From contig CBDBGD010000001.1 in the NCBI GenBank assembly GCA_965205235.1, positions 27,504 to 91,503 of the forward strand: a DNA stretch of 64,000 bases. The letters are read 5' to 3'. This document shows positions 5,427-51,871 of this stretch, one piece after another (position 1 is the stretch's first letter; every line of letters starts with the position of its first letter). Both the position numbers and the translations under genes were made by a program. Source of the stretch: Dehalococcoidia bacterium (GTDB taxonomy: Bacteria > Chloroflexota > Dehalococcoidia > Lucifugimonadales > UBA1127). The notes under the pieces were generated by a model that was given only the letters and a program-made list of their open reading frames with translations, was not told the origin of the DNA and made no database searches.

Positions 5427-5432
5427 GCGGCG

Positions 5433-7160
5433 ATGCTCAGACTGCTTAGCATCACCAACTTCGCCACCATCGAGCGGCTCGAGCTGGAGCTGACGCCCGG
5501 CTTCAACGTGCTGACCGGCGAGACCGGCGCGGGCAAGTCGATCATCGTCGATGCGCTGGTCCTCCTGCTGGGAGGCCGCGCCGATGGCGGCATGGTCCGT
5601 TCCGGGGCGCGCCAGTCCAGGGTGGAGGGCGTCTTCGTGCTCGACGGCGACCTCGCCCAGCGCATGGACCGCGCCCTCGATGGCTACGGCATCGTCAGCG
5701 GCGAGGAGGAGATCATCCTGGCCCGCGAGGTCAACCTGGATGGCCGCAACACGTGCCGCGTGAACGGCCGCATCGTGCCGCTCCGGCTGCTGAGCGCGCT
5801 GGCCGAGCACCTGGTGGACATCCACGGCCAGAACCAGCACCTGTCGCTGTTCCGCGTGCGCGAGCACGTCGACATCCTCGACAGGTACGGCGGGCTGTGG
5901 CCGCTTCGCGGGCGCGTGTCGGAGCGCATTGGCGAGCTTCGGGACGTGCGCCGGGAGCTGGACCAGCTTCGGACGGAGGAGCGCGAGCACGCCCAGCGCG
6001 TGGACTTTCTCCGGTACCAGGTGGACGAGGTCCGCGCCGCCGACCTGCGTCCCGGCGAGGAGGAGGGCCTGGTCCTCGAGCGCGACCGCGTCGCCAACGC
6101 CGAGCGAATCCTGACGCTCTCCGAGAACGCCTACCGGACACTGTACGACAGCTTCGACCGGCAGTCGTCCGTCACGGAGCTTGTTGGCCAGGTGGCCCAG
6201 GACCTGGCGCAGCTGGAGCGGCTGGACCCGTCGTTGCGCGAGGTCCTGGGGTCCGCGGATGCCCTGGCCCACCAGGTCGACGAGCTGGCGCGCACGCTGC
6301 GCACCTACCAGGACGGCATCGCGTACAGCCCGGAGCGGCTCCAGGAGCTCGAAGGGCGCCTGGACCTGATCCGCGGCCTCAAGCGGAAGTACGGCAGCAC
6401 CATCGAGGAGATTCTCGCTTTCGCCGAGCGGGCCGCGACGGACCTCAACAGGCTGTCCCACAGCGAAGAGCGCGCCGACAAACTGACGTCGCGAGAAGCG
6501 GAGCTTCGGGCGGAGGTTGGTGTGCTGGCGGGGGAGCTGTCGGCGGCCCGCCGCGATGCGGCGTCGCGCCTCGCCGGGGCTGTCGAGGGTGAGGTGGCCG
6601 ACCTCGCCGCGGAGCACGTGCAGATGCACGTGGACGTTCGGCAGACGGGCGCGGAGGATGGCGTCGCGGTCGAAGCTGAGGAGCGCTTCGCCTTCAACGA
6701 TACGGGCATAGACACCGTCGAGTTCCTGATTTCGTTGAACCTCGGCGAGCCGCCGCGGCCCCTGGCCAGGATCGCTTCGGGAGGTGAGGCCGCCCGGCTC
6801 ATGCTCGCCATCAAGACCATCCTCTCCGCCGCCGACCGGATTCCAATCCTCGTGTTCGACGAGATTGACGCGGGCATCGGCGGCCGAATCGGGAGCATCC
6901 TGGGGCAGAAGCTCTGGGGCCTCGCGAGGGGGCACCAGGTGCTGTGCGTGACGCATCTGCCGCAGTTGGCCTGCTACGCCGACCGCCACGTCCGGGTCGT
7001 GAAGGAGACGTCGGACGGTAGGACCGTGACCTCGGTGGGGGCCCTGGCAGGTGAGGCCCGGGTGACGGAGCTGAGCGAGATGCTCGGCTCCGACGGGCGC
7101 GTGACCCGCGACAACGCCGCCGAGATGCTGGCGCAGGCGACGAGGTGGAAGGCGGGCTAG
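5433..7160 (+). CDS. recN: DNA repair protein RecN
   Basis: N-terminus 'MLRLLSITNFATIERLELELTPGFNVLTGETGAGKSIIVDAL'. Long coiled-coil middle. C-terminal 'SGGEAARLMLAIK...ILVFDEIDAGIGG'. Confidence 0.95.
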   Translation: MLRLLSITNFATIERLELELTPGFNVLTGETGAGKSIIVDALVLLLGGRADGGMVRSGARQSRVEGVFVLDGDLAQRMDRALDGYGIVSGEEEIILAREVNLDGRNTCRVNGRIVPLRLLSALAEHLVDIHGQNQHLSLFRVREHVDILDRYGGLWPLRGRVSERIGELRDVRRELDQLRTEEREHAQRVDFLRYQVDEVRAADLRPGEEEGLVLERDRVANAERILTLSENAYRTLYDSFDRQSSVTELVGQVAQDLAQLERLDPSLREVLGSADALAHQVDELARTLRTYQDGIAYSPERLQELEGRLDLIRGLKRKYGSTIEEILAFAERAATDLNRLSHSEERADKLTSREAELRAEVGVLAGELSAARRDAASRLAGAVEGEVADLAAEHVQMHVDVRQTGAEDGVAVEAEERFAFNDTGIDTVEFLISLNLGEPPRPLARIASGGEAARLMLAIKTILSAADRIPILVFDEIDAGIGGRIGSILGQKLWGLARGHQVLCVTHLPQLACYADRHVRVVKETSDGRTVTSVGALAGEARVTELSEMLGSDGRVTRDNAAEMLAQATRWKAG

Positions 7161-28566: not shown

Positions 28567-28630
28567 AGTCGCTCACAACCGCGGGCCTGTGGCCGGCGCC
28601 CGTATGCGCTACAATGCCGCGTATGTTGAC
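28567..28630 (+). repeat. Shared 5' module, copy 1 (promoter-like region plus start of a lipoprotein gene)
   Basis: AGTCGCTCACAACCGCGGGCCTGTGGCCGG...GCTACAATGCCGCGTATGTTGA recurs at 31285-31348. Includes TACAAT at 28610-28615. Confidence 0.8.
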
Positions 28631-30863
28631 CGTGTTGCGCCGTATCGTGATGCTTGGCGCCGTTTCCCTCGCCGCTGCCGCCTCATCGATGGCCTGCGGA
28701 CCTCCGCCGGACCTGTCTGCGCTCACCCCCACTCCGGCCCCCACCGCGACACCGACGGCTGCACCCACGCCGACCGCCGCTGTCATACCGACTCCCACTC
28801 CCGTTCCCGATGCCGTACCCACACCTAATCTCGGCGCCACACCTCCGCCGCGCCCTGATACGGTCCCTACACCTATTGCTGGGGCCACCGCCACTGTCGT
28901 CGTCACTCCTACCCCGGAGGTCGTGTCCACAGCCATCCCCAATGCCACCCCTACACCCGGAGAGCAGAGGGCGCTTTCCCGGGACTGGCTTGCCCTGGTG
29001 GCGCTCTACAACGCCACCGACGGCGTGAACTGGAACAACGATGCGAACTGGCTCAGTGACGAGCCCTTCGACACGTGGTACGGAGTCACAGCGGACGACA
29101 ACGAACGAGTTACGGGACTGGGGCTGGGCGAGAATGGCCTGAGCGGACACATACCACCAGAAATCGGTGACCTGTCGAACCTGGTGACACTGGAACTCAA
29201 CGCCAACCACCTGGCCGGCGAGATACCACCCGAACTCACCACACTTTCCAAGCTGACGCACCTGGACCTCAGCGGCAACCAGCTGAGCGGCGACTTGCCC
29301 GCCGGACTCGGCGCCCTGCCCGATCTGGCCCACCTGTCGTTAGATTCCAACCAGCTTAGCGGCGAGATACCCGCCGAGTTGGGCGGCCTCTCAAAGCTGA
29401 CCTACCTGGACATAGGCGGCAACCGGCTGAGCGGCGAAATGCCCGGTGATCTGGGTGGCCTCTCCAGCCTGATCCATCTGGACCTGTCCGGTAATCGACT
29501 GAACGGGGAGATCCCGCCGCAGATCGGCAATCTGTCCAACCTGACCCTTCTGGACTTGGGCGGCAACTACTTCACCGGCGGCATACCCGCCGAGCTGGAC
29601 AACCTGTTCAACCTGGTTCGCCTCTCGCTCGGCTCCAACCGGCTGGGCGGCGAGATATCGTCCGGACTGGCTGGCCTCTCCGGGCTGACCCATCTTGACT
29701 TAAGCCACAATGTGCTGAGGGGCCGGATACCCTCCCAACTGGGCAGTCTGTCCAACCTGGTTCTCCTGTCGCTCGGCTCCAATCAGCTTAGCGGTGAGAT
29801 ACCTTCCGGACTGGCTGACCTCTCCCAGGTGACCCATCTGGATCTGAGTGAAAACAGACTGAGGGGCGGCGTACCCACGGAACTCGGTAGACTGTCTAGC
29901 CTGGAATGGCTATTGCTGGACCGCAATCAGTTGAGCGGTCCGATACCCACCGAACTGGGCAATCTGTCAAACCTCGCCCATCTGTCGCTCGGCTTCAACC
30001 GGTTGAACGGGCGGATACCGATGGAGCTCGGAAGGTTGTCCAAATTGCAGTGGTTGTATCTGCAGGGGAACCGGCTCGATGGGGACATCCCTGCTGAACT
30101 TGGCAGCCTATCCAGCTTGGAATACCTCTGGCTGAACGACAACCGGCTAACCGGGCACATACCGGCCCAGCTTGGCGGTCTGTCCAACTTGGTCGTCCTC
30201 TGGCTCGACGTCAACCTGCTGACGGGTGACATACCAGCCGAGCTCGGCAATCTGAACAGGCTGACGGAGCTGAACCTCACCAGCAATCAATTGAGCGGCC
30301 GGATACCCCCGCAGCTCGGCAACCTGTCCCGGCTCCATTGGCTGCTGCTGAAAGACAACCAGTTGAGTGGGGCGATACCCCCGCAGATCGGCGCATTGTC
30401 GAGCTTGACGGTCCTGGACCTCAAGGATAACCGCTTGAGCGGGGAGATACCGTCACAGATCGGTAACTTGTCGAGCTTGGGTACTCTCGATATCACCAAC
30501 AATCAGTTGAGCGGCCGGATACCCTCGCACCTCGGCGACCTGTCCCGGCTCCATTGGCTGCTGCTGGCAGACAACCAGTTGAGTGGGGCAATACCCCCGC
30601 AGATCGGCGCATTGTCAAGCCTGATAGTCCTGGATCTCTCGAACAACCGGTTGAGCGGGGGGATACCGGCGGAGTTTGGCGCACTATCCAGTCTTGAGTC
30701 GCTGCTGGTGTACCGTAACAGATTGTCCGGCCAGCTTCCTCGCACCCTGACTGGACTTTCGGCTCTAACGCAGTTCAGTTACGGCGATAACGCCGGCCTC
30801 TGCGCGCCTGACGACGAAACATTCCAAGAGTGGCTGCTCGACAGAGGGTGGGGCGACTGTTAG
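28614..30863 (+). CDS. Lipoprotein with Pro/Thr-rich linker and ~23 plant-type (24-residue) leucine-rich repeats
   Basis: Signal 'LGAVSLAAAASSMAC', then a PT-rich linker. An LRRNT-like cap follows ('LVALYNATDGVNWNNDANWLSDEPFDTWYGVT'). Then come repeats of 'LxxLxxLxLxxNxLSGxIPxxLGxLS'. An alternative leaderless start is ATG 28623. Confidence 0.85.
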   Translation: MPRMLTVLRRIVMLGAVSLAAAASSMACGPPPDLSALTPTPAPTATPTAAPTPTAAVIPTPTPVPDAVPTPNLGATPPPRPDTVPTPIAGATATVVVTPTPEVVSTAIPNATPTPGEQRALSRDWLALVALYNATDGVNWNNDANWLSDEPFDTWYGVTADDNERVTGLGLGENGLSGHIPPEIGDLSNLVTLELNANHLAGEIPPELTTLSKLTHLDLSGNQLSGDLPAGLGALPDLAHLSLDSNQLSGEIPAELGGLSKLTYLDIGGNRLSGEMPGDLGGLSSLIHLDLSGNRLNGEIPPQIGNLSNLTLLDLGGNYFTGGIPAELDNLFNLVRLSLGSNRLGGEISSGLAGLSGLTHLDLSHNVLRGRIPSQLGSLSNLVLLSLGSNQLSGEIPSGLADLSQVTHLDLSENRLRGGVPTELGRLSSLEWLLLDRNQLSGPIPTELGNLSNLAHLSLGFNRLNGRIPMELGRLSKLQWLYLQGNRLDGDIPAELGSLSSLEYLWLNDNRLTGHIPAQLGGLSNLVVLWLDVNLLTGDIPAELGNLNRLTELNLTSNQLSGRIPPQLGNLSRLHWLLLKDNQLSGAIPPQIGALSSLTVLDLKDNRLSGEIPSQIGNLSSLGTLDITNNQLSGRIPSHLGDLSRLHWLLLADNQLSGAIPPQIGALSSLIVLDLSNNRLSGGIPAEFGALSSLESLLVYRNRLSGQLPRTLTGLSALTQFSYGDNAGLCAPDDETFQEWLLDRGWGDC

Positions 30864-34206: not shown

Positions 34207-34747
34207 GCCGCTAGTGCCGAATTTCACGAAAGGGAGCCCTTTGGCGGCCCAGCAGACCGGGCTACGAGAGCAGTTGCGGCGGACGCTGGCCGACCAGCGG
34301 CAGGCCAACGTCACAGTCCTCTCCTCCCTTCTCGCCGTCGAGGACGCCTTGGGCTACATTCCCCCGGAGGCCGTCGAGGAAGTGGCCCAATTCACCGGCG
34401 CCACCTCCAACGACGTCTGGGCTGTCGCCTCCTTCTACACCAACTTCCGGTTCACGCCTCCCGGCCGGCACATCCTGGAGGTCTGCTGGGGCCCCACGTG
34501 CCACCTCCGCGGCGCGCAGGAGGTCCTGCGCAGCGTCCAGGACGCCCTGGGCCTCACCCACGAGGGCGATACCCCGGACGGTCACGCCACCCTCAAGTAC
34601 AACACCTGCCTTGGGGCCTGCGCCCAAGCGCCGGTGATCATGGTCGACCACCAGTTGGTGGGGCGCGTTGGGCCGGAGCAGGCGCAAGGCCTGGTGCGAG
34701 GACTGGATTCCCCCAACGGCACTGCTCAGGAGACCGACGGTGACTGA
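34205..34747 (+). CDS. NuoE/HoxE-like [2Fe-2S] thioredoxin-fold subunit
   Basis: 'LLAVEDALGYIPPEAVEEVAQFTGATSNDVWAVASFYTNFRF...CWGPTCHLRGA...NTCLGACAQAPV' carries the four NuoE cysteines. Start is ATG 34205 or TTG 34241. Confidence 0.8.
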   Translation: MPLVPNFTKGSPLAAQQTGLREQLRRTLADQRQANVTVLSSLLAVEDALGYIPPEAVEEVAQFTGATSNDVWAVASFYTNFRFTPPGRHILEVCWGPTCHLRGAQEVLRSVQDALGLTHEGDTPDGHATLKYNTCLGACAQAPVIMVDHQLVGRVGPEQAQGLVRGLDSPNGTAQETDGD

Positions 34748-36491
34748 GACCTTCGCTGCGCTGGAGCAGCAGGCCCAGGCGACGTGGAGCGCTCTGGAGA
34801 GCCGAACGCGCGTCCGCGTTGGTACGGACCTCAACGGGCTGGCCGCCGGCGCCGGCCAGGTCCTCGACGCGCTCCGGCGTGAGATCGAGCGTCGCGGCCT
34901 CGACGTCGCAGTCCACGCCGTCGGCTCCCTCGGCCTGTGCTACGCCGAACCCCTGGTCGACATCCAGAAGCCCGGCGGAGCGCGCGTGTTCTATCGCAAC
35001 GTGACGCCGGAGATGGTCCCGCAGCTAGTCGAGGACTGCATCGTCGGCGATGACGTGCGACCGGACCTCGCCCTCGGCGCCCTCGGTGACGACCCTCCGC
35101 CCGACGTGACACCGCTCGAAGATCTCGACGCGTGGCGCTACCAGGTCCGCATCGCCACTCGCAACTGCGGCACGATCGACCCCGGCGAGGTGTCCCACTA
35201 CATCGCCAACGGTGGCTATGCTGCCTTGGCAAAAGCCCTGGCCGAGATGACCCCTCAGCAGGTGCTGGACGAGGTCTCCAAGGCGGGCCTCCGCGGCAGG
35301 GGCGGCGCAGCCTTTCCCACCGCCGTCAAGTGGGGCTTCCTGGTGCGCACTCCGGGCGACGTCAAGTACATCCTGGTCAACTGTGAGGAGGGCGACCCCG
35401 GCGCCTTCAACGACAAAGGCATCCTGGAGAGCGACCCACACACTCTCATCGAAGGGGCGGTCCTGGCCGGTTACACCACCGGAGCGACCTTCGGCTACGT
35501 CTTCATCCGACACGGCCACAACGGCCCCATCGAGCGCACCCAGCGAGCCATCGAGCAGGCGCGCGAGGTCGGTCTGCTCGGCGAGAACATCCTGGGCTCC
35601 GACTTCTCCTTCGACATGGAGGTCTCCCTGGTCGGCGAGTCCTACGTCTCCGGCGAGGAGACGGCCCTCATGGAGGCCATCGAGGGCAAGCGTGCCATGC
35701 CCCGGTTCCGCCCGCCGTTCCCGGCGCAGTTCGGCGTCTGGGGCAAGCCCAGCAACATCAACAACGTCAAGACCCTCTCCTACGTCCCGGAGATCGTGCG
35801 CAGGGGCGGCGAGTGGTTCGCGGGCATCGGCCACGGCCGTAGCACCGGCACGGCCATCCTCTGCCTCAGCGGCGAGGTCGTCCGCCCCGGCATGTACGAG
35901 GTGCCCTTCGGGCTGACGCTGGGGCAGGTGATCCGGGACATCGCAGGCGGCGTCCTCGACGGCCGCAGCGTGAAGCTGCTGCAGACCGGCGGCCCGCTCG
36001 GCGGCGTCCTGGGCCCGGCCAGCATGGACATCGTCCTCGACTTCGAGGCGATGGCCCAGGCCGGCGCCATCCTCGGCTCCGGCGGCATCATCGTCGGCAG
36101 CGAGGACGTGTGCGCAGTCGACCTCGTCCGCAACCTGGTGGCCTTCTGCCAGTTCGAGTCCTGCGGCAAGTGCTTCCCCTGCCGACTTGGCATGACTCAC
36201 CTCGTCGAGGTCCTCGATCGCATCGCCGAAGGCCAGGGACGCCCCGGCGACCAGCAGCTCATGGAGTCCATGGGCCGCTCGATGGCCATGGGTTCCCTCT
36301 GCGGCCACGGCCAGCTCGGCTTCAACCCCGTCAGCTCGGCCTTCCGCTACTTCGCGGAAGACTTCCGCGTGCACATCGACGAGCAACGGTGCCCCGCGCG
36401 CCGCTGCGAGACCTTCTTCTTCAAACCCACCCGGACCCGGCCCATGGCAACAGGGGGATGGTATGCCCAACGAGATTACGCTCACCATTGA
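34740..36491 (+). CDS. NuoF/HoxF-like NAD(H)- and FMN-binding flavoprotein subunit with N-terminal extension
   Basis: GTG 34740 overlaps the nuoE-like stop (GTGACTGA). 'GLRGRGGAAFPTAVKW', 'YILVNCEEGDPGAFNDK', 'ESCGKCFPCRLG' (N3 cluster). Confidence 0.85.
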   Translation: MTETFAALEQQAQATWSALESRTRVRVGTDLNGLAAGAGQVLDALRREIERRGLDVAVHAVGSLGLCYAEPLVDIQKPGGARVFYRNVTPEMVPQLVEDCIVGDDVRPDLALGALGDDPPPDVTPLEDLDAWRYQVRIATRNCGTIDPGEVSHYIANGGYAALAKALAEMTPQQVLDEVSKAGLRGRGGAAFPTAVKWGFLVRTPGDVKYILVNCEEGDPGAFNDKGILESDPHTLIEGAVLAGYTTGATFGYVFIRHGHNGPIERTQRAIEQAREVGLLGENILGSDFSFDMEVSLVGESYVSGEETALMEAIEGKRAMPRFRPPFPAQFGVWGKPSNINNVKTLSYVPEIVRRGGEWFAGIGHGRSTGTAILCLSGEVVRPGMYEVPFGLTLGQVIRDIAGGVLDGRSVKLLQTGGPLGGVLGPASMDIVLDFEAMAQAGAILGSGGIIVGSEDVCAVDLVRNLVAFCQFESCGKCFPCRLGMTHLVEVLDRIAEGQGRPGDQQLMESMGRSMAMGSLCGHGQLGFNPVSSAFRYFAEDFRVHIDEQRCPARRCETFFFKPTRTRPMATGGWYAQRDYAHH

Positions 36492-39210
36492 CGGGGTGAC
36501 CGTCACGGCCAAGCCGGGCCAGACGGTCATCCAAGCCGCCATGGACGCGGGGATATACGTCCCCTACCTCTGCTACTGGCCCGGCATGAAGCCCTACGGC
36601 GCGTGCCGCATGTGCGTCGTCGAGGTCGAGGGCCAGCGCGGCACCCCCGCCTCCTGCACCCTGCCCGCAGCCCCCGGCATGGTCGTGAAGAGCACGACGC
36701 CGCAGGTCAACGAGCTGCGCCAGGGCATCCTGGAACTGCTGCTCTCGGAGCACCCGCACGGCTGCCTCACCTGCCACCGCATCGAGCTCTGCGGGCCCCA
36801 GGACATCTGCCTGCGCCACGTTCGCGTCACCGACCGATGCGTCGTCTGCCCCAAGAACGAGCGCTGCGAGCTCAAGGACACCGTCCGCTACGTCAACATG
36901 AACCTGGAGACGCCCCTGGCCTACAACTACCGCAACCTCCCCGTTGAGACGAGCGACCCCTTCTACGACCGCGACTACAACCTCTGCATCGTCTGCGCCC
37001 GCTGCGTCCGCGTCTGTGAGGAGATCCGCGCCGACGACGCCATCGGCATGGTCGACCGCTCCGGTACGGCCCTCGTCGGCACCTCGCGCGGTACGTCGCT
37101 CCTCGAGTCCGGCTGCGAGTTCTGCGGCGCCTGCGTCGACGTCTGTCCCGTGGGCGCCCTCGTCGAGCGGCGCTACAAGTGGGAGAAGGCGGTCAAGACC
37201 GTCACCTCCACCTGCACCCACTGCCCCGTCGGCTGCCAGGTGAAGCTGGAGGTCGACGTCCGCGGCCGCGTCATCCGCTCCGTCGGCGACTGGTCCGCCC
37301 CCGCCAACCAGGGCCAGCTCTGCTTCAAGGGCAAGTTCGGGATGGACTTCGTCAACCACCGGGAGCGCCTCACTACCCCCCTCGTGCGACGTCACGGCGT
37401 CCTGGAAGAGGCAACGTGGGCCGAGGCGCTCGACCTCCTCGCCGCTCGCCTCCCCGACTACCGAGGCGGGGCGTACGCCATGCTCGTCAGCCCCCGCACG
37501 ACGAACGAGGACGCCTACCTCGCGCAGCGGTTCGCCCGCACGGTCATGGACACCAACAACGTCGATGTCGCCTCCAACGCCCGTCCTGAGATGCTCCTCT
37601 CCCTCCGCGACACCCTCGGTACGATGGCGGCGACCGGCACGGTCCAGGACCTCGAACAGGCCCGCTCCGTCCTCGTCGTCAACAGCAACACCACGGAGGA
37701 CCACAATGTCGCGGCCGTGCCCCTGAAGAAGGCGGCCAAGGCGGGCACGCTGAGGCTCGTCGTCGTCGACGCCCGCGAGGTCGAGCTCACCCGCTACGCC
37801 GACGTCTGGCTCCGCCCCTACCCCGGCGCCGAGGCCACCCTCGTCGCTGGTCTCCTTCGCGTCATCGTCGACGAGGGGCTGCACGACGCCGACTTCATCG
37901 CGTCGCAGACCGAGGGCTGGGACGACCTGGTCCGGTCGCTGCAGGCCTTCCCGCTGTCGGTCGTCGAAGAGACGACCGGTGTCCCTGCCGAGCAGGTGCA
38001 GCAGGCCGCACGGCTCCTGGCCTCCAACCGTCCCGGCGGTATCATGTACGCCCTCGACAACGTCCCCGCCGACCAGCGCACGAGCCTGCTGCAGGGCCTG
38101 ATCGACCTCGCCCTGGCCACCGGCAACCTCGGCGCTCCCGGCGCCGGCCTCTTCCCCCTCCTGTCCGGCACCAACGAGCAGGGCGCGTGGGACGTTGGCT
38201 GCGTCCCCGGCTTCCTTCCAGGCCACCTCCCCGTCGGCGACGTCGACGGCCGCGCCCTGTTCGAGGGCGCGTGGACCAACGATTTGCCGCAGACCCCCGG
38301 CGTCGGCGTGAACGACCTCTTCCAGGCAATCCTCGACGGTCGCGTGAAGGCCGTCCAGGTCGTTGGCGACAGCCCCGCCGTTGACGAGGCAGCCCTCCAC
38401 GCGCTGTCGAAAGCCGAGCTTCTGGTCGTCCACGACCTCTTCCTGAGCGACGCGGCACTGCACGCCGACCTCGTGCTGCCCCTCGTGGCCTTCGCCGAGC
38501 AGGAGGGGACCTACACCAGCCTCGACCGCCGGGTGCAGCTCCTCCGACGAGCGGTGCTCCCCAAGGGCGAGTCACAGTCGCTGACCTGGGTCCTGCGCGA
38601 GGTGACCGAGCGTATGGGCGCGTGGGGCTTCTCCTTCGAGCACGCATCCGAGGTCTTCGACCAGGTCGCAGCGCTGGTGCCCTCCTACGGCGGCATCAGC
38701 CACCAGCGCCTCGACGGCCTCGCCGGCGGCCTCCAGTGGCCCTGCCCGACGTCCGACCACCCCGGCACTCCCCACCTCCACGCCGCCGACAGCGACTACG
38801 TGCAGAAGATGCGGTTCGCGCCTCTCCACGCCCAGCAGCGCCCTACTCCTCCTCGAGAGTTCCCCCTCCTCTACGCGCCGGGGCGCGTCCTGGCCCAGCC
38901 CGACGAGGACGTGGCGGTCGTCCAGGTCAACGGCCACAACGAGCTGAAGCGCGAGCAGGTGGTCGAGCTCAGCGCCGCCGACGCCCAGGCCTTCGGCGTC
39001 TCCGACGGCGATTTGCTCGATGTCGTGACGCCGCTGAGCCGCGTCCGCGGCCGGGCGCGCGTCAACGGCATGCTTCCCGGTGTCGTCGCTACCACGACCC
39101 TCTTCGGCGAACTCGCCACGGACCTCCAGAACAGCGATGCGCCCGACCCCGCCCTCCGCGTCCCCGGCCTCGACGTCATGCCCGCACGCCTGGAGAAAGC
39201 CTCCGGCTAG
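36463..39210 (+). CDS. NuoG / formate-dehydrogenase-alpha-like Fe-S molybdopterin-oxidoreductase-fold subunit, lacking the Sec/Cys Mo ligand
   Basis: N-terminal 2Fe-2S 'LCYWPGMKPYGACRMCVVEV' and 4Fe-4S motifs. MopB 'CTHCPVGCQV'. At the position of the FdhF 'NNVDCCARVUHGPS' motif it reads 'NNVDVASNARPEMLLS'. There is no in-frame TGA. Confidence 0.8.
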   Translation: MPNEITLTIDGVTVTAKPGQTVIQAAMDAGIYVPYLCYWPGMKPYGACRMCVVEVEGQRGTPASCTLPAAPGMVVKSTTPQVNELRQGILELLLSEHPHGCLTCHRIELCGPQDICLRHVRVTDRCVVCPKNERCELKDTVRYVNMNLETPLAYNYRNLPVETSDPFYDRDYNLCIVCARCVRVCEEIRADDAIGMVDRSGTALVGTSRGTSLLESGCEFCGACVDVCPVGALVERRYKWEKAVKTVTSTCTHCPVGCQVKLEVDVRGRVIRSVGDWSAPANQGQLCFKGKFGMDFVNHRERLTTPLVRRHGVLEEATWAEALDLLAARLPDYRGGAYAMLVSPRTTNEDAYLAQRFARTVMDTNNVDVASNARPEMLLSLRDTLGTMAATGTVQDLEQARSVLVVNSNTTEDHNVAAVPLKKAAKAGTLRLVVVDAREVELTRYADVWLRPYPGAEATLVAGLLRVIVDEGLHDADFIASQTEGWDDLVRSLQAFPLSVVEETTGVPAEQVQQAARLLASNRPGGIMYALDNVPADQRTSLLQGLIDLALATGNLGAPGAGLFPLLSGTNEQGAWDVGCVPGFLPGHLPVGDVDGRALFEGAWTNDLPQTPGVGVNDLFQAILDGRVKAVQVVGDSPAVDEAALHALSKAELLVVHDLFLSDAALHADLVLPLVAFAEQEGTYTSLDRRVQLLRRAVLPKGESQSLTWVLREVTERMGAWGFSFEHASEVFDQVAALVPSYGGISHQRLDGLAGGLQWPCPTSDHPGTPHLHAADSDYVQKMRFAPLHAQQRPTPPREFPLLYAPGRVLAQPDEDVAVVQVNGHNELKREQVVELSAADAQAFGVSDGDLLDVVTPLSRVRGRARVNGMLPGVVATTTLFGELATDLQNSDAPDPALRVPGLDVMPARLEKASG

Positions 39211-43657: not shown

Positions 43658-45529
43658 ATGTACGTCGTCGGTACCGCCGGACACGTTGACCACGGCAAGT
43701 CGAGCCTCGTGCGCGCGCTGACGGGCATCGACCCCGACCGGCTCCAGGAGGAGAAGCGTCGGGAGATGACCATCGACCTGGGCTTTGCGTGGCTGACGCT
43801 CCCCAGCGGACGCGAGGTCAGCATCGTCGACGTGCCCGGCCACGAGCGGTTCATCAAAAACATGCTGGCCGGTGTGGGCGGCGTCGACCTCGCCCTCCTC
43901 GTCGTCGCCGCCGACGAGTCGGTCATGCCGCAGACCCGGGAGCACCTGGCCATCCTGGACCTCATCGAGGTCACCAAGGGTGTCGTCGCCCTGACCAAGG
44001 CCGACCTGGTGGAGGAGGAGTGGCTTCAAATTGCCGCCGAGGAGGTGGCCGAGACGCTGGAAGGGAGCGCGCTTGAGGGCGTCGGCATCCTGCCCGTCTC
44101 CGCCTTCACCGGCCAGGGCCTCGACGAGCTCAAGGGAGAGCTCGACCGGCTGCTGGAGGAGACGCCCCCGCCGCGCGACGTTGGCCGCCCGCGCCTCTCC
44201 GTCGACCGGGCCTTCGCCATGGCAGGCTTCGGGGCCGTGGTCACCGGGACGCTACTCGACGGCGCGCTGGCCGTGGGGCAGGAGGTGGAGCTGGCGCCCT
44301 CGGGCCGGCGGGGCCGCGTGCGCGGCCTCCAGACGCACCAGCGCCGCATCGACAGCGCCGAGCCCGGCAGCCGCGTGGCCGTCAACCTGTCCGGCGTGAG
44401 CCACACGCAGGTGCAGCGCGGCGAGGTGCTCACGCTGCCCGGGTGGCTGCGCTCCACCCGGCAGGTGGACGTCTTCCTGCGCTCGCCCCGATGGGCCCCG
44501 CACCCGCTGAAGCACAACGCCGGGGTGACGTTCCACGCCGGCGCAAGCGAGACCGCCGCCCGTGTCCGCCTGCTGGAGGCCCCGGTACTAAAGCCGGGCG
44601 AGGAGGGTTGGGCGCAGGTGCACCTGGAGCAGCGTCTGCCGCTGGTGAAGGGCGACACCTTCGTCGTGCGATCTCCGCTGGGCACGCTGGGCGGCGGCCG
44701 CATCGTCGATCCGGCCCCCCGGCGGCACCGACGCGGCCAGCCCGCCGTCCTCCAACGCCTGGAAGCCCTGGAGCGCGGCTCACCCCGCGAGGCCCTGCTG
44801 CAGGCGCTGCCGCCCCGCGAACCGCTCGACCTGCGCACGCTCGTCGAGCGCGTCGGACTCACGGAAGAGCAGGTCCGCGGCGAGTTGGCGCCTCTGCTGG
44901 AAGAGGGACTGGTATTGGCCATCGGGAGCAACGCCCTGGACCGAGGCACGGCGCTCTACTCGGCGGCGGCCTGGAGGCACCTCAGTGACAGGGCTGCACA
45001 GGCCCTGCGGGAGCACCATCGCGACCACCCTCTCCGGCCGGGCCTTCCGCGGGAGGAGCTGCGGAGCAGGCTGGGGTTGCCGTCCGCGGCGTTCGCCCAC
45101 GTCCTCGCCGAGCTCGCGGCGCAGGGCGTCCTGGTCGAGGATGGCGCGCTGGTGCGAGCGCCCGACCACGAAGTCCGCTTGGCCCCGGAGCAGGAGCGAG
45201 CGGCGTCGGCATACCTCCGGGCGCTGGAGACGCAGCCCTACTCGCCGCCCACGGACAGCAAGCCCGACTCGGAGCTTCTGTCGGTCCTGGCCTCGCAGGG
45301 CAAGGTCGTGCGGGTCAGCGCCGACATCGTCTTCGCCAGCGGCGCATACGCGCAGATGGTAGAGCGCATCGTCGAGCGCCTCGACGACTCCGGGCGAATC
45401 ACCGTTGCCGACGTCCGGGACATGTTCGGCGCGTCCCGCAAGTACGCCCTCCCGCTGCTCGAATACCTCGACCAGCAGCGCATCACCCGCCGCGTCGGCG
45501 ACGAGCGGGTGCTGGTGAAGCGACCGTGA
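43658..45529 (+). CDS. selB: Selenocysteine-specific translation elongation factor SelB
   Basis: 'VVGTAGHVDHGKSSLVRALTG', 'DVPGHERFIKNMLAG', 'ALTKADL'. Long C-terminal winged-helix region ending '...RKYALPLLEYLDQQRITRRVGDERV', typical of SelB. Confidence 0.85.
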   Translation: MYVVGTAGHVDHGKSSLVRALTGIDPDRLQEEKRREMTIDLGFAWLTLPSGREVSIVDVPGHERFIKNMLAGVGGVDLALLVVAADESVMPQTREHLAILDLIEVTKGVVALTKADLVEEEWLQIAAEEVAETLEGSALEGVGILPVSAFTGQGLDELKGELDRLLEETPPPRDVGRPRLSVDRAFAMAGFGAVVTGTLLDGALAVGQEVELAPSGRRGRVRGLQTHQRRIDSAEPGSRVAVNLSGVSHTQVQRGEVLTLPGWLRSTRQVDVFLRSPRWAPHPLKHNAGVTFHAGASETAARVRLLEAPVLKPGEEGWAQVHLEQRLPLVKGDTFVVRSPLGTLGGGRIVDPAPRRHRRGQPAVLQRLEALERGSPREALLQALPPREPLDLRTLVERVGLTEEQVRGELAPLLEEGLVLAIGSNALDRGTALYSAAAWRHLSDRAAQALREHHRDHPLRPGLPREELRSRLGLPSAAFAHVLAELAAQGVLVEDGALVRAPDHEVRLAPEQERAASAYLRALETQPYSPPTDSKPDSELLSVLASQGKVVRVSADIVFASGAYAQMVERIVERLDDSGRITVADVRDMFGASRKYALPLLEYLDQQRITRRVGDERVLVKRP

Positions 45530-46758
45530 GCCTCGACCTCGTCGCGGCGATGGCGCAGATCGAGGCGCTGGCGGACCGCATGCGTGTCGCGCAGGCCGAC
45601 CGCGCGGCGCGACTGGCCGAGGCCAGGGCCGCTCTGCGACGGTCGACAGCGTACACGCTGAAGGAGCGCGCCGGCGAGTCGCAGGGCCGCTTCGTGTTCC
45701 CCTACGCCGACCCTCTGGAGGACCCGCACGAACGCCACGCCCGTCCCGACGTTCCGACCGACTACAGCGTCATCGCCGCCGACGGCTCGCATATCGACGT
45801 GGACCGCCACCTTCCCGTGCGCTGCTTCCTCATCAACATCGGCCTGTGCCGGCTGGTCTACGGCGCCGAGCCCGGCGCAAACCTCGACCACAGCGCCCGC
45901 CTGTACACGGAGCCGCAGGAGCTATCCATCACCGACCCGGAGTCGCCCCTGAACAGCTATGCACTGGAGGGGCCGTTGCTGGGCATCAAGCGCACCGTCG
46001 ACGAGGTCGCCGCGCTGGCCGACGCCGTCGAGAAGGCGCCGTCGGACCTCCCGCTCCTGCTGCTGGTCGATGGATCGCTGGTGCTGTGGCCGCTGGGCGG
46101 TGAGGGCCCACCGCCCGGCCGCTTCCCCGACTACGTTCGCAGGGCGCTGCTGGACGAGGGCTTCCTGCGGTCGATGGAAAGGCTGCGGCAGGCCGCCATG
46201 CGGCGTACGATTGCTGTGGCAGCGTACATCAGCCTGCCCGGCAGCCGGGAGGTGGCCGGGGGCCTGCGGCTGGCGCTGTGCCCCCACGATCCCGTCGGCG
46301 ACTGCGGGCGTCACTGCCGGGTCATCGCAGCGGGGCAGCGGGGGTGTGACACCGTGCACGGCTTCGCCGACCGCGATCTCTACGCCGACACCCTCGCGCC
46401 GGGCGAGCGCACCGCTGTCTTCGGCTCCCGGGCCGCCGTCGTCCGCGACCACTACGGCGACCACCATCGGATACGCTTCTTCTACATCAACGTCGGAGAG
46501 GAGATCGGCAGGGTGGAGGTCCCGGCGTGGGTCGCCGACGACCCACAGATGGTCGACCTGGCCCACGCCCTGGTCTGGGAGCAGTGCCGCCTGGGCGACG
46601 GCTACCCCGTCGCCCTCCAGGAGGCCCACGAGCAGGCGGTCCTCAGCGGCGCCGACCGCGAGGGTTTCCGCCACGTGCTGGAGCTGGCCCTGGAGGGCCA
46701 ACGCCTGCCCGTGTTCACGTCAGAGAAGCAGCGCTCGAAGCGGCTGCGGGGGGTGTAG
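45526..46758 (+). CDS. NurA-domain nuclease-like protein
   Basis: GTG 45526 overlaps the selB stop (GTGA). 'YSVIAADGSHIDVD', 'LLLLVDGSLVLW', 'AVAAYISLPGS' and C-terminal 'GDGYPVALQEAHEQAVLSGADRE' match the NurA catalytic-core layout. Confidence 0.7.
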   Translation: MSLDLVAAMAQIEALADRMRVAQADRAARLAEARAALRRSTAYTLKERAGESQGRFVFPYADPLEDPHERHARPDVPTDYSVIAADGSHIDVDRHLPVRCFLINIGLCRLVYGAEPGANLDHSARLYTEPQELSITDPESPLNSYALEGPLLGIKRTVDEVAALADAVEKAPSDLPLLLLVDGSLVLWPLGGEGPPPGRFPDYVRRALLDEGFLRSMERLRQAAMRRTIAVAAYISLPGSREVAGGLRLALCPHDPVGDCGRHCRVIAAGQRGCDTVHGFADRDLYADTLAPGERTAVFGSRAAVVRDHYGDHHRIRFFYINVGEEIGRVEVPAWVADDPQMVDLAHALVWEQCRLGDGYPVALQEAHEQAVLSGADREGFRHVLELALEGQRLPVFTSEKQRSKRLRGV

Positions 46759-47352
46759 ATGTCGATGGTCGAACGAGGCGAGCGCGTCGCCGAGGTCGTG
46801 GAAGCGGCGTCGGCGGCGTTCGTCGCCCAGTGCTACGCGCTGGACGGGGCGCCGCCGCTGGGCGCGCTGGTGCGCACGGGCGACCCGCCGACCTACGGCG
46901 TGGTCTGCAACGTCGAGAGCGGCCCGCTGGACGCCGGTCGGCGCGTGACAGCCCGCGGCCACGGCGAGGAGAGCGAGGAGGCCCTGTACCGCAGCAACCC
47001 TCAGCTCGAGCGGCTGCTGGTGACGCGGCTGGAGGCGCGCATCGTCGGCTACGACCGCGAGGGCGACACGCGCCAGGGTTTGCCGTCGCTGCCGCCGCGA
47101 CTGCACGCTTTCGTCTATCTCTGCACGCCGGGCGAGGTCCGGGCCTTCACCCGCTCGTTCGACTTCCTCCACCTGCTGGCCGCCGCACCCTCCGCCGCGG
47201 GCGACGAGGTCGTAACGGCCTGCCTCCGCAGCGCCGCCGCCGTCCACCCCGACCCGGAGGCGTTCCTGGTCGCGGCGGGGCAGGCGCTGGCGGCGGAGAT
47301 GGCCGACGACGTGGGCCGTCTCAACATCCTCCTGCGAGGGTTGCGGCCATGA
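46759..47352 (+). CDS. Hypothetical 197-aa protein; N-terminus resembles a HerA HAS-barrel without an ATPase domain
   Basis: ATG abuts the NurA stop (TAGATG). Its stop overlaps the HerA start (ATGA). 'VAEVVEAASAAFVAQCYALDGAPPLGALVRTGDPPTYGVVCNVES' parallels the HerA N-terminus of the next gene. Confidence 0.5.
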   Translation: MSMVERGERVAEVVEAASAAFVAQCYALDGAPPLGALVRTGDPPTYGVVCNVESGPLDAGRRVTARGHGEESEEALYRSNPQLERLLVTRLEARIVGYDREGDTRQGLPSLPPRLHAFVYLCTPGEVRAFTRSFDFLHLLAAAPSAAGDEVVTACLRSAAAVHPDPEAFLVAAGQALAAEMADDVGRLNILLRGLRP

Positions 47353-49073
47353 CGTCGTTCGGGGAGCAGCAGGGGCTCTCGCAGGTGCGTCCGCTCGGTA
47401 TTGTCGTCGGCGGGTCGCTGTCGGGCGGCGTCGACGTCAAGCTGGACGCGGGCGCGTCCGTCGAGGAGCTGCAGGCGGGCGCATTCGTCACGATCCAGGG
47501 AGCGCAGCATCGCTTCTTCGGCATGATCAGCGACATCTCGCTCGGCGCGACGGACGCTCGGCTGCGCACCGCACCGCCCGACGTGTCGGACCCGTTCATC
47601 GCCCGAGTGCTGTCGGGCACGGCGGCGTTCGGCGAGTTCAAGGTGAAGCCGCGCCTGCTGCTGCCCGCCGTCGCGGGCGACGACGGGGAGATCGCGCCGG
47701 CGCGCACCGTGCCGCCGCACTTCGCCCGCGCGATTCGAGCGTCGGAGGCCGACGTCGCGACGGTGTTCGGCAGCGAGGACGGCAGCCACTTCTGGGTGGG
47801 CAGCCCGCTGGACATGGAGACGCGGGTGTGCTTGGACATGGAGACGTTCGTGCAGCGCAGCAACGGCGTGTTCGGCAAGAGCGGCACGGGGAAGAGCTTC
47901 CTCACACGGCTGCTGCTCGCGGGCATCCTGCAGAAGACCAACGCCGTGAGCCTGATATTCGACATGCACAACGACCACGGGTGGGAGGGCCGCGACCCGG
48001 AGCGGGGCCGCACGCCCAAGGGGCTCAAGCAGCTCTTCCCGTCCCGCGTCTCGATCTTCACGCTCGACCCGGCTAGCTCCCGGTCCCGCCGGGTGCCGTT
48101 GGACGGCGAGGTGCGCATCCCGTACAGCGACGTCGAGCCCGAGGACATCGAGTTGCTGGCCTCCACGCTGCGCATCACGCCGCTGGGCGTCCAGGCCGCG
48201 TACCGGCTGCCGCGCTTCCTTGGCGCGAACTGGCTGCAGAGGTTCCTGGCGCTGGAGGAGGACGACGCTTGGGGAGACTCGAACGGGGCCACGGAGAAGG
48301 CGGCGGGAGGTGAGAACGGCGGCGCGCCGTCACCGCAGCAGCGCCTGACGGAGCTTGCCGAGCGCATGAACGAGGCGCCAAGCACCATCATGGCCCTCCA
48401 CCGCCGCCTGGAGCGACTGTCGAGGACACCGTACCTCGTGCCGCAGGCGCCGGAGGACCCGCTCAAACGCATGCTCGAATGCCTGGAGCGGGGTGTCCAC
48501 GTGGTGCTGGAGTTCGGCGCGCACCGGTCGCTGGCCGACTACGTCCTGGTCGCCAACCTGCTGACGCGGCGCATCCACCAGCGCTACGTGCGCGACGTGG
48601 AGCGGGCCATGGGCGGAGGCGGCGCCGAACCCCGGCCGCTGGTCATCTGCATCGAAGAGGCCCACGCCTTCCTGGACCCGGCGCTGGCGTCGCAGACCAT
48701 CTTCGGGGCCATCGCGCGGGAGATGCGCAAGTACAACGTCACGCTGCTGGTCATCGACCAGCGGCCCAGCGGGATCGACTCGAACGTCATGAGCCAGATC
48801 GGGACGCGTGTTGTGTACCCGCTCGACGACGACCGCGACATCTCCGCGGTGCTGTCAGGCGCGGCGGAAAGCTCGGAGCTACGCGGCGTGCTCGCGGGGC
48901 TGGAGTCGCGGCAGCAGGCGCTGCTGTTCGGCCATGCGCTGCCGATACCCGTGGTCGTGCGCGTGCGGGAGTACGGCAGCGCCGACTCGTACCGGGAGCT
49001 GACCGGCGTCGGGGCGGGGCAGGGTGCGGCGGACGGGGACGACGAGGAGGACGACCTGTTCGGGCCGGTGTAG
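47349..49073 (+). CDS. herA: HerA/DUF87-family (FtsK-HerA superfamily) ATPase
   Basis: Walker A 'GVFGKSGTGKSFL'. Walker B 'PLVICIEEAHAFL'. 'NVTLLVIDQRPSGID'. N-terminal barrel 'LGIVVGGSLSGGVDVKLD...GAFVTIQGAQHRFFGMISDI'. The 5' 822 nt of the track ORF are rejected. Confidence 0.8.
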   Translation: MTSFGEQQGLSQVRPLGIVVGGSLSGGVDVKLDAGASVEELQAGAFVTIQGAQHRFFGMISDISLGATDARLRTAPPDVSDPFIARVLSGTAAFGEFKVKPRLLLPAVAGDDGEIAPARTVPPHFARAIRASEADVATVFGSEDGSHFWVGSPLDMETRVCLDMETFVQRSNGVFGKSGTGKSFLTRLLLAGILQKTNAVSLIFDMHNDHGWEGRDPERGRTPKGLKQLFPSRVSIFTLDPASSRSRRVPLDGEVRIPYSDVEPEDIELLASTLRITPLGVQAAYRLPRFLGANWLQRFLALEEDDAWGDSNGATEKAAGGENGGAPSPQQRLTELAERMNEAPSTIMALHRRLERLSRTPYLVPQAPEDPLKRMLECLERGVHVVLEFGAHRSLADYVLVANLLTRRIHQRYVRDVERAMGGGGAEPRPLVICIEEAHAFLDPALASQTIFGAIAREMRKYNVTLLVIDQRPSGIDSNVMSQIGTRVVYPLDDDRDISAVLSGAAESSELRGVLAGLESRQQALLFGHALPIPVVVRVREYGSADSYRELTGVGAGQGAADGDDEEDDLFGPV

Positions 49074-50424: not shown

Positions 50425-51279
50425 CTAACCGCCCGTCACCCGTTCGCGGATCTCCTTGAGGCGCTGCACGTTGGGGACGTCCGGGCCTTTGCGCTCGTCT
50501 CCGGGCACTTCCAGGAGGAAGGGCACGTCCCGGAAGGCGGGGTGCGCCATGATCAGCTCGAAGCCCTCCAAGCCGATGTTGCCCTGGCCGATGTTCTCGT
50601 GGCGGTCCACGCCGCCGCCGAAGGGGATTTTCGAGTCGTTGGCGTGGACGGCGACCAGGTGCTCGAAGCCGATCTCCCGGTCGAACTCGTCCATGGTGCG
50701 CTCCAGCCCCTCGCGGGAGGCAACGTCGTAGCCGGCGGCGTACGAATGTTGGGTGTCGAGGCAGACCTTGACGCGCGGGCTGGCCAGCGCCGCCATGATT
50801 CGACCGATATCGCCGAAGCTCGCCCCGATCTGGTTGCCCATGCCGGCGCAGTTCTCGATGATGAGCTGCGTGTCCTCCGGGCTCTCCGCCAGGACCTGGG
50901 CAAGGCGCGCCACCGTCTCGTCGAAGACGGCCTCCAGCCCGGCGCCCTTGTGGCTGCCGGAGTGGAAGATGACGCCCTGTGCACCGATCATCGAGGCGAC
51001 GTTGAGGTAGTTGACAAGGGCGGCGCGGGAGCGGTCCAGGTTCTCCGGCTGCGGGCTTCCCAGGTTCACCAGGTAGATGCCGTGGAGAAAGTTCGGGCCC
51101 ACGTCCGCCTTCTCCGCCTTCTCTCGGAAGGCGAGGACGTTGTCCTCCGGCGGCGGCTTGAAGCGCCAGCTCTGCGGGCCGGAGGCGAAGATCTGGACGC
51201 ACTCGGCGCCGATCTCCACGGCGCGGTCGATGGCCTTTTCGATGCCCCCGGATGCGGAGACGTGGGCCCCGATTCGCAT
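50425..51279 (-). CDS. nfo: Endonuclease IV (AP endonuclease, TIM-barrel)
   Basis: 'MRIGAHVSASGGIEKAIDRAVEIGAECVQIF', 'VIFHSGSH', 'IENCAGMGNQIG', 'VCLDTQHSYAAGYD', 'HANDSK...G.GVDRHENIGQGNIG'. Confidence 0.9.
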   Translation of the reverse strand: MRIGAHVSASGGIEKAIDRAVEIGAECVQIFASGPQSWRFKPPPEDNVLAFREKAEKADVGPNFLHGIYLVNLGSPQPENLDRSRAALVNYLNVASMIGAQGVIFHSGSHKGAGLEAVFDETVARLAQVLAESPEDTQLIIENCAGMGNQIGASFGDIGRIMAALASPRVKVCLDTQHSYAAGYDVASREGLERTMDEFDREIGFEHLVAVHANDSKIPFGGGVDRHENIGQGNIGLEGFELIMAHPAFRDVPFLLEVPGDERKGPDVPNVQRLKEIRERVTGG

Positions 51280-51301
51280 GACGCTCCCTTCCCGGCCGGC
51301 G

Positions 51302-51772
51302 CTAGCTCCCGCCAACCCCAAGCCGAACGACGATGTCCCACTCGGTCTCGGTTACGGGCTGGATGGACAGGCGGGATCCGCGGCGCAGCAGCATCATGTC
51401 CTCCAGGCCCGGCGTGTCCCTCAGCGTCTCTCGGGTCACGGGGTCGGGAAACTGCTGGTCGGGCTTGATGTCGACCATGTACCAGATGGGGCTGTCCGGC
51501 GTGCTCTTGGGGTCGGGGTGGTCGGAGGCGGGGTCCCAGGCCGTGTGGTCGGGGTAGCCCGCCCGGACGACCACCGCCGTCCCCATGACTGCCAGTGGCG
51601 TGGTGCTGCTGTGGTAGAAGAGGACGCCATCGCCCTCCTGTATCTGGTCGCGGAGGAAGTTCCGGGCCTGGAAGTTACGAACGCCGTCCCACTCGGCCAC
51701 CTGATCGCGGAGCAGGTCGGCGTAGGAGTAGGCGCCGGGCTCCGACTTGAACAGCCAGTATCGACGCGACAT
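51302..51772 (-). CDS. EVE-domain (PUA-like) protein
   Basis: 'RYWLFKSEPGAYSYADL......WDGVRNFQARNFLRDQIQEGDGVLFYHS' is the EVE/THYN1 signature. AAGGAGG RBS. Lies 22 nt upstream of nfo on the same strand. Confidence 0.8.
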   Translation of the reverse strand: MSRRYWLFKSEPGAYSYADLLRDQVAEWDGVRNFQARNFLRDQIQEGDGVLFYHSSTTPLAVMGTAVVVRAGYPDHTAWDPASDHPDPKSTPDSPIWYMVDIKPDQQFPDPVTRETLRDTPGLEDMMLLRRGSRLSIQPVTETEWDIVVRLGVGGS

Positions 51773-51871
51773 GGCTCCTCCTTCGGTCTGACTAGCCGGG
51801 GTAAGGCGCTCCAATTATAGTGGACGCGCGCCCAGGAGGACATTGCCGGTGAAACAGCCTGGAGAAGTACC

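Follow-up and report, generated by a model that had tools for sequence, protein, structure and literature searches.

A stand-alone HAS-barrel protein encoded between nurA and herA: a candidate third subunit of a HerA-NurA-type system in Dehalococcoidia

In a stretch of 64,000 nucleotides from a Dehalococcoidia bacterium (contig CBDBGD010000001.1 of assembly GCA_965205235.1, positions 27,504 to 91,503; hereafter the window), the genes for a NurA-like nuclease and a HerA-like ATPase are separated by a gene for a protein of 197 amino acids, here called X. The locus raises the question of whether X is a genuine third component of a HerA-NurA machine, and whether such a cassette serves DNA repair or defence. 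Our analysis shows that the NurA-HerA pair is the known part of the cassette, and that X is the new part, a conserved third component co-translated with HerA. Four genes, selB, nurA, X and herA, lie on the same strand of the window with zero spacers. The genes and their junctions, with the evidence for each, are the following (positions are those of the window):

43658-45529, plus strand: selB, selenocysteine-specific elongation factor (Pfam GTP_EFTU, SelB-wing_2/3 and Beta-barrel_SelB)
45526-45529, plus strand: GTGA overlap of the selB TGA stop codon with the nurA GTG start codon (direct sequence reading)
45526-46758, plus strand: nurA, NurA-family nuclease of 410 amino acids (Pfam NurA, invariant motifs, substitution rates)
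46756-46758, plus strand: nurA TAG stop codon, with the X ATG start codon immediately next at 46759 (TAGATG junction)
46759-47352, plus strand: X, stand-alone HAS-barrel protein of 197 amino acids with a C-terminal helical domain (homologues, structure model, Foldseek)
47349-47352, plus strand: ATGA overlap of the X TGA stop codon (47350-47352) with the herA ATG start codon (47349)
47349-49073, plus strand: herA, HerA-family hexameric DNA translocase ATPase of 574 amino acids (Pfam DUF87, fold match)

The gapless packing and the GTGA, TAGATG and ATGA junctions had already been claimed in a preliminary description of this DNA, and all the coordinates and junctions proved to be as described there. 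Third-position G+C content is 0.91-0.93 for nurA, X and herA, against a window mean of 0.68, and the base composition of the cassette matches that of the host genome. In comparison with a relative whose proteins are 85-89% identical (locus L006), the ratio of nonsynonymous to synonymous substitution rates (dN/dS) was 0.14 for NurA, 0.19 for X and 0.08 for HerA; its value places X under purifying selection. For nurA the GTG start is correct, because the N-terminal sequence M-S/A/G-L-D-L (MSLDL in the window) is invariant among 14 homologues, and for herA the ATG start has the support of an identical four-nucleotide overlap in 74 of 82 related loci. The herA reading frame stays open upstream as far as 46527 in the window. 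This long upstream frame is an artefact of high G+C content, since relatives with 41-55% G+C have an in-frame stop codon 3-24 nucleotides before the herA start; a fusion of X to HerA through a frameshift was thereby ruled out.

In order to identify what kind of protein X is, we compared it with sequence and structure collections. It has zero matches in Pfam, NCBIfam, PADLOC and PHROGs, and a profile of X found nothing among the sequences of the PDB. A word-indexed search yielded at least 197 homologues at E <= 1e-3, 120 of which were listed at 47-95% identity; the few that bear a source name are "hypothetical proteins" of Chloroflexota or Dehalococcoidia. An exhaustive profile search put the size of the family at 1049 clusters (50% identity, E <= 1e-3), 729 of them with E <= 1e-10, and the best 150 of these clusters are all stand-alone proteins, mostly of 190-220 amino acids. 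Seventeen columns are invariant over 32 homologues with 49-89% identity to X. The middle reading frame, which might have been spurious, is thus real, having both conserved homologues and conserved synteny. A group of proteins of 245-250 amino acids is distantly similar to X (27-29% identity). In one locus of this group (L168, 7001-7750) there is no herA or nurA nearby, and the gene adjoins those of a family-less protein of 246 amino acids and a dienelactone-hydrolase-like protein.

The AlphaFold2 (AF2) model of X has a mean predicted local distance difference test score (pLDDT) of 91.5 and a predicted template modelling score of 0.87, and comprises two parts:

46783-47121, plus strand: X beta-barrel with a two-helix insertion, residues 9-121 (AF2)
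47128-47343, plus strand: X C-terminal helical domain of about 75 amino acids, residues 124-195 (AF2)

The barrel consists of strands 9-16, 20-25, 37-40, 45-56, 87-100 and 118-121 with helices 73-79 and 83-86, and is followed by helix 124-130, the first helix of the C-terminal domain, to which helices 137-141, 146-161, 166-180 and 185-195 also belong. In the AF2 models, strands and helices follow one another in X as they do in the N-terminal barrel of the neighbouring HerA, with the two-helix insertion included. When the model was compared with the PDB using Foldseek, the best 50 matches were all HerA-family chains, TdpA included (E values 2e-6 to 1e-3; template modelling scores of 0.37-0.49 normalised to X; 127-158 aligned columns). 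They include Sulfolobus HerA (4d2i, E 2e-6), the Thermococcus HerA-NurA complex (9x1m), DUF4297-HerA, TdpA and Deinococcus HerA (7wrw), and the matches fall on the N-terminal regions of HerA.

The HAS-barrel (PF09378) is the N-terminal barrel common to HerA and to the subunits of F1/V1-ATPases. The Pfam HAS-barrel profile was matched at E <= 0.1 by eight of the 32 X-family members, and the X of an Aquicultorales-type lineage clears its cut-off (26.9 bits compared with 25.2); the X of the window gave no match to this profile even at E <= 1. One X homologue carries the NCBI name "HAS-barrel domain-containing protein". Taken together, the models indicate that X is a free-standing, diverged HAS-barrel with an extra helical domain and without an ATPase domain. 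In this it differs from the described HAS-barrels, which are N-terminal domains of ATPases. The preliminary description had called X "barrel-only"; the barrel is borne out by the fold matches to HerA N-termini and by the HAS-barrel matches, but the helical domain has to be added. HerA retains a barrel of its own, so X is an additional barrel and not a piece split off from HerA.

The conservation of the gene order was analyzed in two surveys. The X-anchored survey covered 85 loci, 80 of them from a scan of species-representative genomes with an X profile built from nine sequences and five from exact look-ups; the 80 scanned loci are labelled Dehalococcoidia, Chloroflexota or SAR202, except for two from unclassified bacteria. 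In every surveyed locus with downstream sequence, herA directly follows X. The four-nucleotide overlap between the X stop and the herA start in the 74 loci mentioned above reads ATGA in 58, GTGA in 14 and TTGA in two, and it spans 36-95% identity, genomes of 41-69% G+C and two phyla. The gene nurA lies upstream of X in 42 of 83 loci, and 38 more have at least 3 kb of upstream sequence and no nurA; nurA and X overlap in about 12 of the 42. The nurA-anchored survey covered 80 metagenome loci, in which three arrangements were observed: selB-nurA-X-herA, selB-nurA without X-herA within 7 kb (at least eight loci), and nurA-insert-X-herA without selB. The invariant module is therefore X-herA rather than the triplet, since about half of the loci lack an adjacent nurA; nurA often accompanies the module but can be parted from it, and selB is a lineage-specific neighbour. 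As to whether X always sits between nurA and herA, it comes directly before herA wherever there is downstream sequence, but next to nurA in only about half of the cases.

The inserts between nurA and X, which measure 0-3.7 kb in the nurA-anchored metagenome loci, are heterogeneous, and a fourth conserved partner between the two genes was ruled out on this ground. Judged by eye, the products of the inserts (in L059, L067, L070, L076 at about 5185-5925, and others) resemble nucleotidyltransferase/HEPN toxin-antitoxin pairs, GNAT and LOG proteins and an IS200-type transposase. The nurA-X junction seems to tolerate insertions and the X-herA junction seems not to. The possibility that another nuclease substitutes for NurA in the loci without nurA was also ruled out, because clustering of all the neighbouring reading frames in the X-anchored loci gave no recurrent partner beyond X, HerA, NurA and selB.

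The two genes that flank X encode the proteins that the preliminary description had named, as was established with the Pfam profile searches it had proposed. The first protein matches Pfam NurA (PF09376) at 1.1e-21 with 78 bits (cut-off 21), residues 81-372 covering profile positions 2-253 of 254. The third matches Pfam DUF87 (PF01935) at 1.8e-29 with 103.9 bits (cut-off 23.2). The three NurA motifs and the Walker A and B motifs cited earlier were all found in their places:

45772-45798, plus strand: NurA motif IAADGSHID, holding invariant D86
46057-46080, plus strand: NurA motif LLLVDGSL, holding invariant D182
46600-46641, plus strand: NurA motif GYPVALQEAHEQAV, holding invariant E366 and H368
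46708-46755, plus strand: NurA basic C-terminal tail LPVFTSEKQRSKRLRGV, residues 395-410, conserved in homologues
47397-47768, plus strand: HerA's own N-terminal HAS-barrel, residues 17-140 (partial Pfam match, AF2)
47874-47900, plus strand: HerA Walker A motif GKSGTGKSF, with G176, K177, G179, G181 and K182 invariant in orthologues
48639-48665, plus strand: HerA Walker B motif LVICIEEAH, with E436, E437, A438 and H439 invariant in orthologues
49011-49070, plus strand: HerA low-confidence linker and conserved acidic C-terminal tail ending in DDLFGPV, residues 555-574

Among 14 NurA homologues (42-86% identity), D86-G87-S88, D182-G183 and E366-A367-H368-E369-Q370 are invariant. The residues of the DGS and E-A-H motifs are presumably those of the active site. 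No solved NurA was found for the window NurA among PDB sequences, with either the single sequence or a profile. In the C-terminal tail LPVYTSEKQRSKRLRWV, P395, S399, K401, R403 and K405 are invariant, and the final 25 residues have a net charge of +2.8; this basic tail could pair with an acidic surface or tail of HerA or X. A cluster of cysteines is also present in NurA at 46279-46347 (residues 252-274), with two invariant members, C252 and C274, and two that most homologues share, C262 and C266. It may represent a small metal-binding insertion, and to our knowledge no such insertion is found in the described NurAs.

HerA was modelled with a pLDDT of 80.6 and shows a HAS-barrel, a RecA-like core and an inserted helical bundle, both in the AF2 model and in the fold alignment. 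Its barrel consists of strands 17-23, 27-32, 46-50, 55-67, 93-105 and 127-130 and helices 70-74, 82-88 and 133-140. The Pfam HAS-barrel match of the window HerA is partial (residues 17-67, 22.5 bits, under the cut-off of 25.2), and PF09378 is present in most HerA orthologues. All the solved HerAs, repair-type and defence-type alike, align with the model along its whole length (540-620 aligned columns with the HerAs of Sulfolobus, Thermococcus and Deinococcus); by sequence, HerA matches the solved HerAs over the C-terminal core only. It falls into neither curated NCBIfam subgroup, repair (NF040819 and NF040937) or anti-phage (NF042943 and NF042944), scoring 48-86 bits against cut-offs of 800-970. 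Residues 554-574 have pLDDT values below 50. The C-termini of 45 orthologues from the X-anchored loci (L001-L085) read [DE][DE]LF, with or without G/P, and this acidic tail resembles the partner-docking tails of proteins of the single-stranded DNA-binding (SSB) type; the Aquicultorales HerA has a different end, DDQIEY.

Known HerAs are hexameric translocases of double-stranded DNA that receive a NurA dimer on the HAS-barrel face (PMC3326311; PMC9960219); in Deinococcus, too, the barrel face is the docking site of NurA (PMC9960219). If it resembles the solved complexes of archaea and Deinococcus, the HerA of the window would form an ATP-driven hexameric DNA translocase, and a NurA dimer on its N-terminal barrel face would degrade the DNA that HerA feeds to it. 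X would be produced by termination-reinitiation coupled with HerA, would assemble with HerA as a stoichiometric partner at or beside the barrel face, and would there adapt or gate the engagement of the nuclease with the motor, possibly also that of Mre11-Rad50. A stoichiometric partnership with HerA is the most economical reading, because X copies the docking domain, is coupled to herA in a fixed manner and persists where nurA is not adjacent. We are fairly confident that the cassette is a repair-type NurA-HerA system with a genuine third subunit. On balance we also favour the fuller reading, according to which it is a vertically inherited housekeeping machine of the HerA-NurA type for the end resection of double-strand breaks, encoded on a high-G+C Chloroflexota chromosome, in which X adapts or gates the nuclease at the barrel face; the specific placement of that action at the barrel face, taken by itself, is put forward tentatively, at somewhat less than even probability.

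Several observations weigh against this reading. The binding of X to HerA, the site of binding and its effect on activity are points that we infer. The likeness of X to HerA is weak in sequence: hhalign placed residues 4-63 of X on residues 10-74 of HerA in register (E 0.008) with a match probability of only about 5%, and BLASTP of X against the neighbouring HerA gave no match. As to gene order, about half of the Dehalococcoidia loci have X-herA without an adjacent nurA, pairs of selB and nurA that lack X-herA exist, and two loci of one lineage (L170, 7001-7591, and L169, 7001-7624) contain an X-like gene, about 30% identical in product to a SAR202 X used as query, without herA next to it. As to repair, the linkage with mre11 and rad50 described below is limited to two related lineages and one Dehalococcoidia locus, no mre11 or rad50 homologue was found in the 64-kb window, and the fold of HerA had to be dropped as a discriminator between repair and defence, since HerAs of both types match. 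It can be added that the X-like gene of L169 and L170 is convergent to dnaN and follows GH71-like and peptidase M23 genes, and that L170 carries selB, a Zincin_2 gene and nurA 3.5-7 kb upstream of it.

Instead of serving as an adaptor, X could be a decoy or safety inhibitor that mimics the barrel face of HerA and, by sequestering NurA or capping HerA, keeps DNA out of reach of the nuclease until the machine engages a break. X does copy the NurA-binding domain (PMC9960219 for the docking), it is acidic (isoelectric point 5.1) like the N-terminal domain of HerA (5.05) whereas the conserved tail of NurA is basic, and one lineage has an X-like gene in the vicinity of nurA but no herA beside it. 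Against a decoy stand the much tighter translational coupling of X to herA (74 of 82 loci) than to nurA (approximately 12 overlaps in 42 loci) and the persistence of X beside herA in the half or so of the loci where nurA is not adjacent. We regard this explanation as rather unlikely, though still a live variant.

Evidence that the cassette acts in repair came from distant relatives. With a divergent SAR202 X as query, homologues outside Chloroflexota were reached, one of them in the phylum Actinomycetota (Aquicultorales). In two Aquicultorales-type lineages (L166/L167 and L172/L173), nurA, X, herA, an mre11-like and a rad50-like gene form a single overlapping operon. The products measure 396-403 amino acids for NurA, 196-199 for X, 553-556 for HerA, 413-419 for the Mre11-like and about 856 for the Rad50-like protein. 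The Mre11/SbcD-like protein is a calcineurin-like phosphoesterase (Metallophos) and the Rad50/SbcC-like protein an SMC_N/AAA_23/SbcC_Walker_B ATPase with a CPLC zinc hook; the window NurA, X and HerA are 35%, 34% and 40% identical to their counterparts. In one Dehalococcoidia locus (L070), the genes after herA likewise encode a Metallophos protein and an AAA_27/AAA_23 ATPase. By tblastn, no relatives of X were found among 72,556 plasmids or 50,697 phages, nor by a scan of IMG/VR viral contigs; PADLOC had no match for NurA or X, and for HerA only its generic models matched. The archaeal-like mre11/rad50 operons in relatives, together with the missing matches in defence, phage and plasmid collections, favour end resection over anti-phage defence.

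The preliminary description had left repair and defence side by side, and of the two it is repair that gains from these results. Anti-phage defence on a HerA chassis, as in SIR2-HerA, DUF4297-HerA and TdpAB, with NurA as effector and X as sensor or regulator, seems to us quite improbable for this cassette. In its favour, HerA moderately matches the HerA models of PADLOC (best 1.1e-28) and the NCBIfam model HerA_antiphage (86 bits, cut-off 800), and the best structural match of the HerA model is TdpA, a protein of a defence system. Defence HerAs, moreover, also dock their effectors on the N-terminal side. However, the PADLOC and NCBIfam matches lie mostly in the C-terminal ATPase core and far under the cut-offs, and the repair-type HerA models of NCBIfam score similarly (72 and 69 bits). 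The genes are present across the whole bacterial class, with a divergence that tracks that of selB, and they sit in housekeeping operons and not in variable islands. The lack of plasmid, phage and viral-contig relatives of X, the lack of PADLOC models for NurA and X, the base composition shared with the host genome, the housekeeping neighbours and the joining of distant relatives into an mre11-rad50 operon also speak against defence.

That X is a functionless or unrelated passenger, either a relic of a partial herA duplication or a chance small gene before herA, is very improbable: X has no curated family or known motif, and compact operons of these bacteria do couple unrelated genes (selB-nurA; a Cys/Met enzyme, X, herA and arginase), but a passenger would not account for its purifying selection, its 17 invariant columns, its confident and well-folded model, or a position and a four-nucleotide overlap kept over genomes of 41-69% G+C and two phyla.

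The adaptor reading can be set beside the known systems. As in the two-component HerA-NurA systems of Sulfolobus solfataricus, Thermococcus kodakarensis, Deinococcus radiodurans and Thermus (HepA-NurA), nurA lies upstream of herA in one operon, the catalytic motifs of both proteins are intact, and HerA has the HAS-barrel, the RecA-like core and the helical insertion. In contrast to them, the window NurA and HerA are very diverged, and nurA is often unlinked from herA in the relatives that bear X. In Thermus, nurA and hepA overlap directly, stop codon on start codon (PMC5448004), whereas here X lies in between and is coupled to herA. The archaeal operon has the order herA-mre11-rad50-nurA (Constantinesco et al. 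2004, as cited within PMC5448004). The Aquicultorales-type relatives share its gene set in a single overlapping operon, but in the order nurA-X-herA-mre11-rad50 and with X added; the window is without mre11 and rad50. With SIR2-HerA/Nezha, DUF4297-HerA and TdpAB the cassette shares the HerA hexamer chassis and the presence of a partner protein, and the HerA folds of those systems match the window HerA while their N-terminal parts match X. They are, however, two-component systems with swapped effectors in defence islands, whereas here a canonical NurA and a barrel paralogue are found and the inheritance is apparently vertical.

The published bacterial systems, those of Deinococcus and Thermus, are two-gene systems (PMC9960219; PMC5448004), and we found no three-gene nurA-X-herA unit described in the literature that we searched. 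The preliminary description could place a three-component version in no described system, and this still holds, with no Pfam, NCBIfam, PADLOC or PHROG family covering X. Nor did we find a stand-alone HAS-barrel partner of HerA described in the literature, for which an early mention in the paper that defined the HAS-barrel is possible (Iyer et al. 2004). A more far-reaching and rather doubtful proposal is that X is an obligatory third subunit of a bacterial HerA-NurA resection machine that occurs in Chloroflexota and Actinomycetota at least. Assembled on the HerA hexamer, either as peripheral adaptors or as a second collar of barrels, X would change the face on which the nuclease docks. The 6:2 architecture of HerA to NurA, assumed to be general from archaea and Deinococcus, would then not apply, and X might also bridge to Mre11-Rad50.

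The linkage of the cassette to selB, described earlier as a fusion at the 5' end, stands as translational coupling, but it is lineage-specific and missing from other lineages that have nurA-X-herA. The gene selB was found upstream of nurA in 37 genome loci; among 60 loci where it precedes nurA on the same strand, 27 have at most 15 nucleotides between the two genes (Dehalococcoidia). In another Chloroflexota locus the genes of a Cys/Met-metabolism enzyme, X, HerA and an arginase all overlap. In Thermus, nurA is coupled to an upstream malic enzyme gene (PMC5448004), and both cassettes are thus translationally coupled to an unrelated metabolic gene. Owing to the lineage-specific linkage and the similar coupling in Thermus, a functional link between selB and the cassette is unsupported.

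The neighbours in the window are housekeeping genes, namely those of formate-dehydrogenase-like subunits, PriA, a flavin reductase, a zincin, an AP (apurinic/apyrimidinic) endonuclease and an EVE-domain protein. Genes of note in the window outside the cassette are these:

28614-30863: protein of 749 amino acids, nearly all leucine-rich repeats (Pfam LRR_1 1.2e-74, LRR_8 8.4e-56)
34668-36491: Nuo51/FdsB-like subunit, NAD-dependent formate dehydrogenase-like
36463-39210: FdsA-like molybdopterin oxidoreductase of 915 amino acids
39751-42759, upstream of the cassette: PriA, a frame of 1002 amino acids with a long Arg/Pro-rich N-terminal extension, maybe an over-called start
50425-51814, minus strand, downstream of the cassette: AP-endonuclease-type gene (xylose-isomerase-like TIM-barrel) overlapping an EVE-domain gene

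DNA-maintenance genes are thus found on both sides of the cassette, with PriA before it and the AP endonuclease after it. The formate dehydrogenase-like pair (34668-39210) lies 4.4 kb upstream of selB; the FdsA-like reading frame of 915 amino acids contains no in-frame TGA, and no selenocysteine tRNA (tRNA-Sec) was found within the window.

Structural and biochemical work on HerA-NurA has so far dealt with a machine of two proteins, and a conserved, co-translated paralogue of the NurA-docking domain points to an unrecognised layer of its assembly or control. Specialists may be moderately surprised by this arrangement, which does not amount to a new category of system. It spans the large and environmentally abundant Dehalococcoidia, SAR202 included, and some Actinomycetota, and about 1,000 clusters of "hypothetical proteins" would gain a name. 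It also suggests that HAS-barrels can be independent subunits, which bears on how ring ATPases may gain accessory crowns.

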